From: an uncultured Rickettsiaceae bacterium | GTDB lineage: Bacteria; Pseudomonadota; Alphaproteobacteria; Rickettsiales; Rickettsiaceae | Reading direction: 5' to 3' | Length of the DNA stretch: 59,123 nucleotides | Assembly: GCA_964436105.1 (NCBI GenBank) | Contig: CAYTBU010000001.1 | Location: forward strand, 1-59,123 | Part shown: positions 45,513 through 48,973 of the stretch, in pieces | Layout of the letters: each line of letters starts with the position of its first letter | How positions within the stretch are numbered: position 1 is the first letter of the stretch | The notes under the pieces: generated by a model | Told to the model about the DNA's origin: nothing | Seen by the model: only the letters and a program-made list of their open reading frames with translations | The model's database searches: none | Position numbers and translations under genes: made by a program

Positions 45513-45549
45513 AAAAAAGGGGTTAGCTATAACAGCTAACCCCTTTTTT
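45513..45549 (+). terminator. Rho-independent terminator hairpin (left copy of a duplicated unit)
   Basis: AAAAAA-GGGGTTAGCT-ATAAC-AGCTAACCCC-TTTTTT. This is a paralogue of the hairpin at 48049..48086. Confidence 0.75.
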
Positions 45550-45570
45550 ATTCTAAATATATATCTTCGC

Positions 45571-45673
45571 TTACTTCAGCAAATTATACATTGTTTTGCC
45601 GATTTCTGCCGGGGAGGCTGAAACAGCCATGCCAGCTTGGCGGAATGCTTTAGAGTTTGGTCTCAGCAGAGCT
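45571..45673 (-). pseudogene. sucD: Remnant duplicate of the 3' end of sucD (last ~33 codons)
   Basis: 45571..45615 is identical to 48101..48145 (TTACTTCAGCAAATTATACATTGTTTTGCCGATTTCTGCCGGGGA, reverse strand ...GKTMYNLLK stop). The next ~57 nt have about 5 substitutions and small indels (net +1 nt). No upstream sucD sequence is present. Confidence 0.88.
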
Positions 45674-45850
45674 TTGAGAGATTGTTAAGATAATTCTAGG
45701 TAATAAAGCTTCAGGTAATGTAACGTCTAAGAAAAAAAGCTTTTTTATAATTATCACTATTAAGAGATTTTTAGTTTCTGTTATTAGTGAAAGAGTGGCA
45801 AAGCTTGCATTAATAGAATACAATATTAATTATTTAATAAAGAGATATTT

Positions 45851-46384
45851 ATGCCAATTAAAACTATTAATGCTGATGATTTAAAGCGTTTAATTGATGA
45901 AGACGAAGTGTTAGTCATTGACGTGAGAGAACCAGCTGAGCATGCCTCGCATAATATTGAGGGAGCGAAATTGTTACCACTGGATATGATTAATAGGAAA
46001 ACATTGCCCAAGTCGGCAGGTAAAAAAATAGTTATCCATTGCCATTCTGGAAACCGTAGTAGCAAAGCTTGCATGAAGTTAATTGCTGAAGATCCCGCCT
46101 TGGAATTATATAATTTGGAAGGAGGAATTGCGGCATGGAGGGCAATTGGTCATGATGTGCAATCTTCTGGGGATGTATTGTTACCTTTAGATAGGCAGGT
46201 TCAGTGTACGATTGGCTCTCTTGTGCTGGTGGGGAGTTTACTTAGCTATTTTGTAAATCCATTATTTTGTTTATTCACATCTTTTTTTGGGGCCGGGCTT
46301 ATTTTTGCTGGATTGAGTGGTTTTTGTGGGTTGGCAATATTACTCTCTAAAATGCCTTGGAACCGCATTCAAAATAAGCAATGA
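45851..46384 (+). CDS. Rhodanese-domain sulfurtransferase fused to a C-terminal YgaP-like (DUF2892) membrane domain
   Basis: 177 aa. Active-site loop CHSGNRS within a rhodanese fold (VIDVREPAEH...LEGGIAAW). The C-terminal two-TM segment ends in GFCGLAILLSKMPWN. Confidence 0.8.
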   Translation: MPIKTINADDLKRLIDEDEVLVIDVREPAEHASHNIEGAKLLPLDMINRKTLPKSAGKKIVIHCHSGNRSSKACMKLIAEDPALELYNLEGGIAAWRAIGHDVQSSGDVLLPLDRQVQCTIGSLVLVGSLLSYFVNPLFCLFTSFFGAGLIFAGLSGFCGLAILLSKMPWNRIQNKQ

Positions 46385-46385
46385 T

Positions 46386-47183
46386 ATGTGGTTGTTAGGT
46401 CATATATTAGCATTGTTGATGGGTACTACTCTGGGATTTTTGGGAGCCGGAGGATCAATTTTTACTGTGCCAATTTTGGTGTATATATTAGGAATTAATC
46501 CTATTTTAGCGATGAGCTATTCTTTAGTGGTAGTCGGAGTAGCTGCCTTTGTGGGTGCACTGCAATATTGGTACAAGAAACAAATTCATTTTACTGTGGC
46601 TGCGATCTTCGCTTTGCCATCTATGGCTTCTGTTTTTCTGACTAGAAGATTTATCATGCCTAATATGCCAGAATATATTATGAGCATAGAAAAAGATGTT
46701 TTTGCTATGCTGTTATTTGCACTTTTGATGATGATTACCGCAATATTGATGCTTCGGCCGATAAAGCTATCTGCTAATGCTATGCATAATGTGGTGAGTA
46801 TAAGAAACTTATTCAAAGCAGTTGTTGGTAGTGCTTTCGTTGGTTTCCTTAGCGGGTTAGTTGGGGCTGGGGGTGGTTTTATGATTATTCCAGCTTTAAT
46901 CGTATTATTCGGATTAGAGATGAAAAAGGCGATTGGTACTTCTTTGTTGATTATTGCAATTAATGCATTAATAGCTGTGAGCGCTGATTTAGTCGTGGGC
47001 GTTGTGTTGGATTGGCAATTGGTGGGCGTCTTCTTAGTTTTTACTTTATTGGGTGTTTTGCTGGGTATAAAATTAGGACATAATTTTGACAGCGCAAAGT
47101 TAAAACAAATCTTTGGATTTCTTACCTTACTGCTTGGATTAGCAATTGGGGCGGTTGAAATTTATCAATTACTTAATGTATAA
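46386..47183 (+). CDS. TauE/SafE (DUF81) family sulfite/organosulfur anion exporter
   Basis: Same frame as track ORF 46317..47183. ATG at 46386 lies 1 nt after the rhodanese stop. Two GxGGG repeats (GFLGAGGSIFTVP and GLVGAGGGFMIIP) in a protein with about 8 TM segments. Confidence 0.85.
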   Translation: MWLLGHILALLMGTTLGFLGAGGSIFTVPILVYILGINPILAMSYSLVVVGVAAFVGALQYWYKKQIHFTVAAIFALPSMASVFLTRRFIMPNMPEYIMSIEKDVFAMLLFALLMMITAILMLRPIKLSANAMHNVVSIRNLFKAVVGSAFVGFLSGLVGAGGGFMIIPALIVLFGLEMKKAIGTSLLIIAINALIAVSADLVVGVVLDWQLVGVFLVFTLLGVLLGIKLGHNFDSAKLKQIFGFLTLLLGLAIGAVEIYQLLNV

Positions 47184-47195
47184 AGAGAGGCATTT

Positions 47196-48050
47196 ATGCA
47201 TATTAAACATTTTTTTGATGCTGATACGGCTACTTTTACCTACGTTGTAACTGATGATAGTACGAAGAAATGCGCTATTATAGATTCTGTACTGAATTAC
47301 GATACGTATGCTGGTAGAACTTCTACAATCTCTGCTGATGAAGTGATCGCGTATATAGAAGCAATGGATTTAACGGTGGAATGGATTTTAGAGACGCATG
47401 TGCATGCCGACCATTTAAGTGCTTCTAGTTATCTTAAAAGTAAATTAGGAGGCAAAATTTCTATCGGCGAAGATATCAAAAAGGTATTAAGTTTTTGGGT
47501 GCCGTTGTTTAATACAGAGCGTGATACTCCTTTAGATGCCAGAAAATTTGATCATTTATTTCAGGATAATGAGAGGTTTTTTATTGGTTCGATAGAGGTT
47601 AAAGTTATGCATACACCAGGTCATACACCTGCTTGCGTTAGCTATTTAATAGGTGATGCTGTGTTTGTGGGCGATACTATTTTTATGCCATATGTGGGAA
47701 CTGCTCGGACTGATTTTCCTGGAGGTAGTGCTAAAGCGATGTATAGATCAATCCAGAAACTATTATCATTGCCAAATGATACTCGTATTTTCACATGTCA
47801 TGATTATCCTTTGGAAAATATGCAGCCAGGGTTTATGTCAACCGTTGCTGAGCAAAAAAGGGATAATATAATGGTTCGTGATGGCGTTAATGAAGAGCAG
47901 TATATTGCTGCGCGTAATAAGAAAGATGAAGGCAAGGCTGTACCTAAGTTGTTATTACCATCTCTTCAAGTTAATCTCCGTGCTGGAGAGTTTGGTGATG
48001 CAGAGAGTAATGGGGTGAGTTTTATAAAGATTCCATTGAACAAGATATAA
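47196..48050 (+). CDS. MBL-fold metallohydrolase, persulfide dioxygenase (Blh/ETHE1)-like
   Basis: 284 aa. Metal motif ETHVHADH, then TPGHTP, GDTIF...GTARTDFPGGSA and the CHDY blocks. RBS AGAGAGG at 47184-47190. Confidence 0.8.
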   Translation: MHIKHFFDADTATFTYVVTDDSTKKCAIIDSVLNYDTYAGRTSTISADEVIAYIEAMDLTVEWILETHVHADHLSASSYLKSKLGGKISIGEDIKKVLSFWVPLFNTERDTPLDARKFDHLFQDNERFFIGSIEVKVMHTPGHTPACVSYLIGDAVFVGDTIFMPYVGTARTDFPGGSAKAMYRSIQKLLSLPNDTRIFTCHDYPLENMQPGFMSTVAEQKRDNIMVRDGVNEEQYIAARNKKDEGKAVPKLLLPSLQVNLRAGEFGDAESNGVSFIKIPLNKI

Positions 48051-48086
48051 AAAAAGGGCTAGCTATAAAATAGCTAGCCCTTTTTT
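48049..48086. terminator. Bidirectional terminator hairpin between the MBL gene (+) and sucD (-); right copy of the duplicated unit
   Basis: AAAAAAAA-GGGCTAGCTA-TAAAA-TAGCTAGCCC-TTTTTT. Confidence 0.75.
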
Positions 48087-48100
48087 AGTTTGTATGTAAT

Positions 48101-48973
48101 TTACTTCAGCAAATTATACATTGTTTTGCCGATTTCTGCCGGGGATGCTGAAACAGCGATGCCAGCTTGGCGGAAGGCTTCTAGTTTAGTCTCAGCGGAG
48201 CCACAGTCGCCAGAAATAATCGCACCAGCATGACCCATTCTTTTTCCTTTCGGAGCAGTAACGCCAGCAATAAAGCCAACAACTGGTTTCTTAATTTTAG
48301 AATGTTTTAGGAAATATGCAGCTTCCTCTTCTGCGCCGCCGCCAATTTCACCAATCATGATAATTGCTTTAGTTTCGTCATCTCTTAGGAACATATCTAG
48401 GCAATCGATGAAGTTTGTGCCATTGACTGGATCGCCACCAATACCGATGCAAGTAGATTGTCCTAAGCCTACAGCTGTAGTTTGCGCCACTGCTTCATAG
48501 GTTAGAGTACCAGAACGGGATACGATGCCAATGCTGCCTCTTTGATGAATATGCCCAGGCATGATGCCTATTTTACATTCACCAGGTGTGATAACACCAG
48601 GGCAATTTGGGCCGATTAGGCGAGTGCCTGAGCCTACTAATGCGCGTTTAACCCTTACCATGTCAAGTACAGGAATACCTTCTGTAATACAAACTACAAG
48701 TTCAATCTTTGCATCGATTGCTTCTAAAATTGAATCAGCAGCAAATGGAGGTGGAACATAGATAACACTGGCATTAGCCCCCGTTTTTGCTACTGCTTCT
48801 TCTACAGTATCATATACTGGTAAGTCTAGATGTGTTTTTCCGCCTTTTCCGGGCGTAACACCGCCAACCATTTTTGTACCATAAGCTATCGCTTGTTCTG
48901 AGTGGAAAGTGCCTTGGGATCCTGTGAATCCTTGACAAATAACGCGGGTGTTTTTATTTACTAATACTGCCAT
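48101..48973 (-). CDS. sucD: Succinate--CoA ligase (ADP-forming) subunit alpha
   Basis: 290 aa. [21 protein letters not shown] and the phosphohistidine block MGHAGAI. Confidence 0.96.

Follow-up and report, generated by a model that had tools for sequence, protein, structure and literature searches.

How did a set of sulfur-metabolism genes come to be enclosed by two copies of one gene junction, with no recombinase beside them? This question is raised by a locus on contig CAYTBU010000001.1 (assembly GCA_964436105.1) of an uncultured member of the Rickettsiaceae, of which a stretch of 59,123 nucleotides (nt), hereafter the window, was analyzed. Three co-oriented genes, encoding a rhodanese with a YgaP-like transmembrane domain (Rhodanese+YgaP_TM), a TauE-family membrane protein, and an MBL-fold persulfide dioxygenase (PDO), lie between direct copies of a terminator hairpin coupled to the 3′ end of sucD, the gene for the alpha subunit of succinyl-CoA ligase. 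A preliminary description of the window had pointed out this duplication and the three enclosed genes, and both were recovered here. With about even confidence, we interpret the locus as the scar of a recombination event, homology-anchored or illegitimate, that joined cassette-bearing and cassette-deleted haplotypes at a hot spot between sucD and a gene encoding an M16 peptidase.

Anatomy of the duplicated junction

The repeated unit occurs in direct orientation, and BLAST aligned its left copy to the right with 80.6% identity over 201 columns (E = 1e-43; Table 1). From left to right, each copy takes in 12 terminal codons of PDO, a hairpin, a spacer, and 34 terminal codons of sucD. The left edge had earlier been placed at 45513, yet the repeat starts further left, at 45474, with a remnant of the PDO gene (PDO′). 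The presence of this remnant means that the repeated unit is the whole convergent junction, comprising PDO 3′ end, bidirectional terminator, spacer, and sucD 3′ end. In a repeat search, no other long direct repeat of this type and of low copy number turned up in the window. Chance similarity of the two copies was rejected on the basis of the E-value and the lack of any comparable repeat in the window, and a hairpin family dispersed through the genome was likewise rejected, since a further copy was absent from the window.

Table 1. Coordinates of the duplicated junction, the cassette, and the flanking features in the window.
Feature	Coordinates	Strand	Remarks
M16 peptidase gene	42551-43816	+	left flank of variable interval
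RPE-like palindromic element	43888-43943	.	between M16 and TraB-like genes, 1.5 kb from left repeat
TraB/PrgY/GumN-family gene	43992-44936	-	left flank
orf95	45155-45442	+	left flank; putatively hypervariable; no Pfam or NCBIfam match
Left copy of repeated unit	45474-45672		direct orientation
PDO′ remnant	45474-45509	+	VSFIKIPLQIR*; left counterpart of 48015-48050
Hairpin Y	45507-45555	.	perfect 22-bp stem, 5-nt loop; arms 45507-45528 / 45534-45555; A-run and T-run
Spacer Y	45556-45570	.	between hairpin Y and orphan stop codon
sucD′ orphan	45571-45672	-	last 34 sucD codons and stop, frameshifted by 1-nt insertion
Junction segment J	45673-45850	+	unique sequence upstream of rhodanese gene; homolog only in L086, 96.6%
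Rhodanese domain and YgaP-like transmembrane domain (sulfurtransferase)	45851-46384	+	PF00581 8.4e-16, PF11127 1.2e-07
TauE/SafE-family membrane protein (putative sulfite or sulfur-anion exporter)	46386-47183	+	PF01925 2.2e-38
PDO, MBL fold	47196-48050	+	NF040641 Blh, dioxygenase half, 3.4e-108
Right copy of repeated unit	48015-48201		direct orientation
PDO part of right copy	48015-48050	+	last 36 nt of PDO
Hairpin X	48050-48086	.	perfect 17-bp stem, 3-nt loop; arms 48050-48066 / 48070-48086
Spacer X	48087-48100	.	14 nt, between hairpin X and sucD stop codon
sucD, intact	48101-48973	-	TIGR01019 at 1.1e-144
sucD part of right copy	48101-48201/2	-	last 102 nt of sucD

On the PDO side, the remnant reads gta agt ttt att aaa att ccg ctt caa ata aga tag, compared with an intact gene that ends in VSFIKIPLNKI*. 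The two stretches are identical at 26/37 positions, the first eight codons specify the same peptide, and the six substitutions within those codons are all synonymous (6/6). Moreover, the C-terminal motif [YF]IK[IV]PL.K.* is kept in homologous PDO genes at unrelated loci (L091, L097, and L085), and this conservation leads us to conclude that the left copy holds a remnant of the gene.

On the sucD side, the final 45 nt of the orphan fragment (sucD′), including the stop codon, are identical to those of the intact gene (45/45), and the next stretch matches at 49/58 positions, with eight mismatched columns and one 1-nt indel. Over its length, sucD′ is 94/103 identical to the window's own sucD end, nearer than to that of any relative, and it has the lineage-specific Gln codon (FRQAG), with substitutions that fall nearly all at synonymous third positions. 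The homology to sucD stops abruptly at approximately 45672/45673, the left edge of segment J. The left copy is dead on both sides, in PDO′ and in sucD′. Between hairpin and sucD end, the spacers of the two copies are nearly unrelated (9/21 identical), a comparison that used the 21-nt Y-type spacer 45550-45570, which takes in the end of the outer arm of hairpin Y. Spacer X is 14/14 identical in L094, L081, L082, and L086.

Both hairpins, X in the right copy and Y in the left, have A- and T-runs on both sides. Their folding free energies on the two strands were -32.5 and -33 kcal/mol for Y and -24.6 and -24.1 kcal/mol for X, with 0/200 shuffles folding as well, and they are the sole strong terminator-like hairpins across 40-59 kb of the window. 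All hairpin variants in relatives (5/5) had perfect stems, and one base pair occurs as U-A, G-C, and C-G; these perfect stems and compensatory changes therefore indicate that the hairpin is under structural selection. A GC-rich stem-loop, a U-run on both strands, and a location between convergent genes identify X and Y, judged from their sequences, as bidirectional terminators of the intrinsic type. Hairpin X would end transcription of both sucCD and the cassette operon, and hairpin Y may insulate the cassette promoter in J against read-through from orf95. A search of Rfam returned generic hairpin matches only, all of them below threshold.

Diverged alleles and the sucD-M16 interval in relatives

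The two copies differ in a manner that bears on their history. Hairpins X and Y are identical at 32/42 positions, and divergence is uneven between the sucD part on the one hand and the spacer and PDO end on the other (Fisher P = 1.6e-4). In the coding pieces of the two copies, 12/13 substitutions are synonymous. Under a null model of neutral decay of one copy after duplication in situ, approximately 40% of changes would be predicted to be synonymous, so that the excess has a P of about 1e-4 under this duplicate-then-decay model. Both coding pieces therefore appear to have diverged mainly while still part of working genes, and the left and right units are best read as alleles that came from working genes and were later brought together, not as the outcome of decay in situ. 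Additionally, in our reading of the alignments, sucD′ keeps the synonymous states of the window's nearest relatives at 4/6 polarizable sites.

For comparison, contigs of relatives were fetched on the basis of SucD, and the interval from sucD to the M16 peptidase gene was compared locus by locus. The SucD protein of the window is 84-86% identical to Rickettsia proteins, and several relatives have SucD at 89-99%. The nearest locus by sucD (98% nt identity) is on L086, a 330-kb contig from a JGI metagenome, which has the window's composite with both copies, diverged by 1-3% from those of the window, and is an independent occurrence. The closest relative without the composite, L087 (sucD 91%), is rearranged. 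Specifically, a Y-type hairpin arm (aaggggttag) precedes an element that resembles a Rickettsia palindromic element (RPE); this palindromic element lies directly 3′ of sucD and interrupts the Y-type hairpin. In L095 (87.5%), approximately 50 nt follow sucD and then the M16 gene, and in L088, L089, L090, and L092 (82%) a PIN/MazE-type toxin-antitoxin pair replaces the cassette ahead of M16 (10939-11563 in L088).

Three further loci retain parts of the arrangement seen in the window. L096 (sucD 83%) has a Y-type spacer and hairpin, a 6-codon PDO′ remnant, orf95, and the TraB-like gene. L094 (86%) has an X-type spacer, an X-type hairpin with one C-G to G-C compensatory swap, a 10-codon PDO′ remnant (FIKILLNKI*), orf95, and the TraB-like gene. 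In L091 (84%), a Y-type spacer and hairpin are followed by decayed versions of orf95 and the TraB-like gene, a second cassette, and M16. This second PDO-TauE-rhodanese cassette (1933-4622) is far more divergent (PDO 69% amino acid identity) and occupies another position in the interval, an arrangement which suggests that the module was gained or relocated more than once.

In both L091 and L096, the Y-type hairpin is located after the true sucD, and the window's Y spacer and hairpin are identical at 53/59 positions to the true-sucD flank of L091 and at 50/59 to that of L096. On these alignments, the Y unit beside the orphan is an ortholog of the true sucD flank of other lineages. Furthermore, L096, L094, and the window's left unit have a common junction from PDO′ into the sequence leading to orf95. 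We attribute this common junction to one old deletion that made a cassette-less "D" allele from an ancestor in which PDO was convergent on sucD. The PDO′ scars of L096 and L094 likewise imply that the cassette-less alleles are deletions and that PDO convergent on sucD is the older state in the clade. An empty site with a single hairpin had been proposed as a check, and in L096 and L094 a single hairpin is indeed present without a cassette; these are not virgin sites, however, given the PDO′ remnant and the common deletion junction.

The X unit, outside the hairpin, is identical at 30/31 positions between the window and L094, compared with differences at 43/116 third codon positions of sucD (Fisher 1e-4). 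Given the divergence of sucD, such identity argues that recombination, breaking at the stop codon, carried the flank from one lineage to another. Across the relatives, the interval holds nothing, a PIN/MazE pair, orf95 and a TraB-like gene, decayed remnants with a second cassette, or the composite, and no mobility genes. The sucD-M16 interval behaves like a recombination hot spot of the kind represented by minimal mobile elements. Signs of local recombination are also seen elsewhere when the window is compared with L086. In the case of orf95 (45155-45442 in the window, 13532-13837 in L086), DNA identity is 68% with both flanks at 99-100%, the mark of either a hypervariable gene or local allelic replacement. 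In sucCD (48101-50139), the 30 differences from L086 are clustered at alignment columns 753-906 and 1676-1806, and this clustering suggests that short tracts have recombined inside core genes.

Beyond these loci, a scan of GTDB species representatives with SucD gave 80 loci (best 84% amino acid identity), none of which had the cassette or synteny near sucD. A DNA-pattern scan of metagenomes returned two contigs, of which L094 was the informative one. No PDO relative above 60% identity was found in the plasmid collection searched, and no vehicle was identified there.

Origin of the composite locus

The sequence comparisons show how the junction is built and that its copies are allelic, that relatives have deletion alleles and differ in what the interval holds, and that a flank has been exchanged between lineages. 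The recombination scar that we favor would involve two haplotypes. In haplotype I (type X), sucD would be followed by terminator X and then by PDO-TauE-rhodanese directed at sucD. In haplotype D (type Y), produced by an old deletion of the cassette except for the last ~12 PDO codons, sucD would be followed by terminator Y, PDO′, orf95, and the TraB-like gene. An X segment consisting of spacer X, hairpin X, PDO, TauE, rhodanese, and J would then have been joined to a D-type chromosome, at one end by a homologous crossover in or beside the conserved last ~45-100 nt of sucD, and at the other by an illegitimate join of J to sucD position -102. The route may have been a Campbell-type single crossover of a circularized ~2.5-kb fragment or, with the same product, homology-facilitated illegitimate recombination (HFIR) of a linear fragment. 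In doing so, the resident sucD 3′ end, terminator Y, and the PDO′ scar would have been displaced to the far side as an orphan, with sucD left intact and no dedicated recombinase involved. The order of events, as well as a circular or linear form of the donor DNA, are points we infer. As to direction, a Y remnant is left in L087, the orphan retains ancestral states, and X has been mobile; together these observations favor a resident Y/D and an incoming X with the cassette.

HFIR has been proposed as the source of orphan 3′ ends in rhs, cdi, and type VI secretion system (T6SS) loci (PMC5361080). In the account given there, with citation of de Vries & Wackernagel 2002 and Jackson 2009, incoming DNA is anchored at a conserved 3′ stretch and its other end is joined illegitimately. 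The present locus has the features of such a scar, namely an orphan sucD 3′ end beyond the module with sucD intact, one homologous and one non-homologous junction, and different alleles. It resembles the "C-terminal displacement" arrays of rhs, cdi, and T6SS effector-immunity loci in that an old 3′ end has been pushed downstream as an orphan without a dedicated recombinase. It differs in that the anchor is a housekeeping gene of the tricarboxylic acid cycle rather than a polymorphic toxin, in that the process is deduced from sequence, and in that the displaced piece is 34 codons long and encodes nothing new, with a repeat that adds the convergent end of a cargo gene and a terminator. Similarly, like the minimal mobile elements of Neisseria, as defined in the wording quoted in PMC3787668, the interval has fixed flanks (sucD and M16), variable content, no mobility genes, and exchange that is best explained by homologous recombination in the flanks. 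The Neisseria elements are replaced cleanly without a duplicated flank, unlike the flank here, and Neisseria is known to undergo natural transformation, which is not known for the window's Rickettsia-like lineage. The suggestion of a new insertion mechanism can be set aside, since displacement of an orphan 3′ end by homologous plus illegitimate recombination has already been described elsewhere (PMC5361080); the locus is most likely a further example of an already recognized type of event, and not a new class of mobile element.

Several points weigh against the recombination-scar reading. None of the relatives has a duplication-free haplotype I (sucD, X, cassette, J, then other sequence), which makes the donor a hypothetical one. 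Outside L086, J is without a homolog, leaving no comparison for microhomology at the illegitimate junction. Moreover, sucD′ is much nearer to the resident sucD (94/103, with the common Gln codon) than Y/PDO′ is to X/PDO, a closeness that calls for a close donor with an old flank haplotype or for later gene conversion or allelic replacement in sucD. Sliding-window identity across sucCD did not reveal a clear donor tract or breakpoint, and uptake and exchange of DNA between such intracellular bacteria are assumed. The relatives are a handful, mostly short metagenomic contigs, and identity counts rest on tens of nucleotides.

The principal rival, which we rate as rather unlikely, is an ancient tandem duplication in situ that, in a common ancestor, began at sucD position -102, took in the terminator and cassette, and ended with J. 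A later deletion would have removed the greater part of the distal cassette, leaving PDO′, and gene conversion would have kept sucD′ like sucD; in relatives, losses by crossover in sucD′ would have yielded the Y-type loci (L096 and L091), whereas the X/Y mosaic seen in L094 would stem from a crossover in PDO′. Few events would thereby explain the X and Y types and the one common PDO′ junction in both sublineages, L094 is X-type up to atatcttgttcaat and D-type thereafter, as a crossover product would be, and a block of 45/45 identity beside a diverged block resembles a conversion tract. Dead copies, however, would not be expected to show 12/13 synonymous substitutions; conversion would have to account for those in sucD′, and coincidence for those in PDO′. 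With sucD third positions 37% divergent, the 30/31 match between the X units of L094 and the window is also far closer than vertical descent would allow. In addition, the proposed L094 crossover would have only ~5 nt of PDO/PDO′ identity, too little for RecA, and a tandem pair of identical 2.5-kb copies would be highly unstable. A mirror image of the favored history, with the X haplotype resident and a D/Y segment (sucD′, Y, PDO′, orf95, and the TraB-like gene) arriving from a related lineage by means of a homology anchor on the M16/TraB side and an illegitimate join to J, would give an identical final structure; the close relatives L095 and L087 are without orf95 and the TraB-like gene, and orf95 has clearly been swapped between strains. 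We nevertheless regard it as very unlikely, as sucD′ falls with the window's own sublineage, whose ancestral synonymous states it retains, a Y-type remnant lies after sucD in L087, and the recent identity between lineages belongs to the X unit.

Integration by a site-specific element or genomic islet, with the copies as attL and attR and an integrase that targets the sucD 3′ end either lost or acting in trans, is highly improbable in our judgment. Direct repeats of a gene 3′ end with an identical 45-nt core do resemble att sites, and, as at integrase islands, they surround cargo with the target gene intact. Yet no integrase, transposase, or recombinase was found among the genes of 42551-50139 in the open reading frame (ORF) list or by Pfam and NCBIfam scans, which revealed only cargo and housekeeping functions. 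The 45-nt identical block sits within a ~200-nt repeat of 80.6% overall identity that covers two convergent gene ends; where a clean attB would be expected, the cassette-less L096 and L094 have a PDO′ scar; and the same module occurs at unrelated loci without such repeats. With no recombinase gene, and with scars rather than clean sites in relatives, an integrase island is effectively excluded. Of the two origins first put forward for the duplicated gene end, homology-driven capture without a dedicated enzyme thus remains as the best reading, and the integrative element falls away. A transposon or insertion sequence was also rejected, there being no transposase, no inverted repeats at the cassette ends, and a duplication of more than 100 nt. 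The earlier statement that integrases and transposases are missing therefore holds; that no RPE is present holds within the coordinates first given (45513-48201), and not outside them, where an RPE-like element occurs between the M16 and TraB-like genes, as does one after sucD in L087. Finally, an assembly chimera of two co-existing strains through their common sucD 3′ end might be imagined, as each of the haplotype types occurs naturally and the DNA apparently comes from a symbiont within host or metagenome data. It is scarcely credible, because the J-sucD′ junction offers no homology for an assembler to collapse and the same composite is present in the independent 330-kb JGI contig, and we consider it effectively excluded.

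The ~200-bp direct repeats, with their 45 nt of perfect identity, are predicted to make the cassette excisable by RecA, which would feed a presence/absence polymorphism of a persulfide/sulfide detoxification module. A bolder proposal, which we think quite unlikely, is that the ~2.5-kb unit is an integrase-free shuttle cassette that pops out as a circle through RecA and re-enters, after transfer, any cassette-deleted allele of a related symbiont by a single crossover. If so, the circle would carry three genes and one block of "portable homology" (PDO end, terminator, and sucD end), and its re-integration would regenerate the window's composite and maintain the polymorphism across lineages. Under the favored recombination scar, a Rickettsia-like intracellular bacterium would gain, lose, and re-gain an accessory metabolic module by plain recombination beside a core gene, and related lineages evidently exchange DNA at the sucD-M16 hot spot. 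This bears on the ecological flexibility of reduced symbiont genomes, here in tolerance of sulfide and persulfide, and on the interpretation of "att-like" repeats where an integrase is absent.

The sulfur module and its surroundings

The PDO protein matched PDB structures 4ysk/4ysl over its full length (1.6e-93) and the ETHE1 structure 4chl at 9.4e-20, its translation has the HxHxDH motif, and it is predicted to be an ETHE1-type persulfide/sulfur dioxygenase. It covers only positions 143-422 of the Blh model, without a fused DUF442 sulfurtransferase, and the sulfurtransferase is here the separate rhodanese-YgaP protein. By analogy with the BigR/Blh operon, the module should turn persulfide or sulfide-derived sulfur into sulfite and then export it, with a probable division of labor in which the rhodanese transfers sulfur, PDO oxidizes it to sulfite, and TauE exports the product. 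Elsewhere among the alphaproteobacteria, the same three genes likewise form a module, sited at loci that have no connection with sucD and lack such repeats, and in some cases an ArsR/HTH_5 regulator gene precedes it. The BigR/Blh operon is an H2S-to-sulfite oxidation module (PMC5823870), and the present cassette resembles operons of this type (Xylella and Agrobacterium) and PDO-rhodanese-TauE clusters in combining a dioxygenase, a sulfurtransferase, and a TauE-like membrane protein. It differs in that the sulfurtransferase is a separate, membrane-anchored rhodanese-YgaP rather than a fused DUF442 domain, and in the absence of the ArsR-family repressor. No ArsR/BigR-type (HTH_5) regulator gene adjoins the cassette by Pfam and NCBIfam scans, nor was one found in L091 or L097, which suggests constitutive expression or another kind of control; an HTH_5 regulator precedes the homologous modules in L083 (6558-7429) and L085 (8305-8636).

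Base composition, which the preliminary description had offered as a possible sign of foreign origin, gave no such sign. GC content at third codon positions (GC3) was 0.28-0.34 in the cassette, compared with 0.31 ± 0.045 for the long ORFs of the window, and neither GC nor GC3 showed an anomaly relative to the window. In a neighbor-joining tree of PDO, which was poorly resolved, the window and L091 sequences were not sisters (69% amino acid identity), and each was approximately 74% identical in amino acids to other alphaproteobacterial PDOs. No inverted terminal repeats were found at the cassette ends.

BLAST of J, and of the spacer between the TraB-like and M16 genes, against all fetched loci matched L086 only. 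Within J, a promoter-like site lies at 45795-45824 (GTGGCA-18-TACAAT), identified by consensus match only. A 20-nt near-repeat, which may be due to chance, is present at 45794-45813 (AGTGGCAAAGCTTGCATTAA), overlapping the predicted -35 element of the cassette promoter, and at 46058-46077 (AGTAGCAAAGCTTGCATGAA), within the rhodanese gene.

The palindromic element near the left repeat belongs to a family of 45-65 nt (CGTCATTGCGAGGAGG ... CCGACGTAGCAATCCAGT), reminiscent of Rickettsia palindromic elements, with at least 10 copies in the window: 706-771, 800-854, 14452-14517, 19028-19093, 22213-22267, 25459-25524, 27825-27879, 33703-33771, 43888-43943, 53940-54044, and 56458-56542. A second family of intergenic repeats, approximately 60-100 nt in length and with three to four copies, was located at 7736-7830, 26346-26418, 41409-41513, and 56044-56150.

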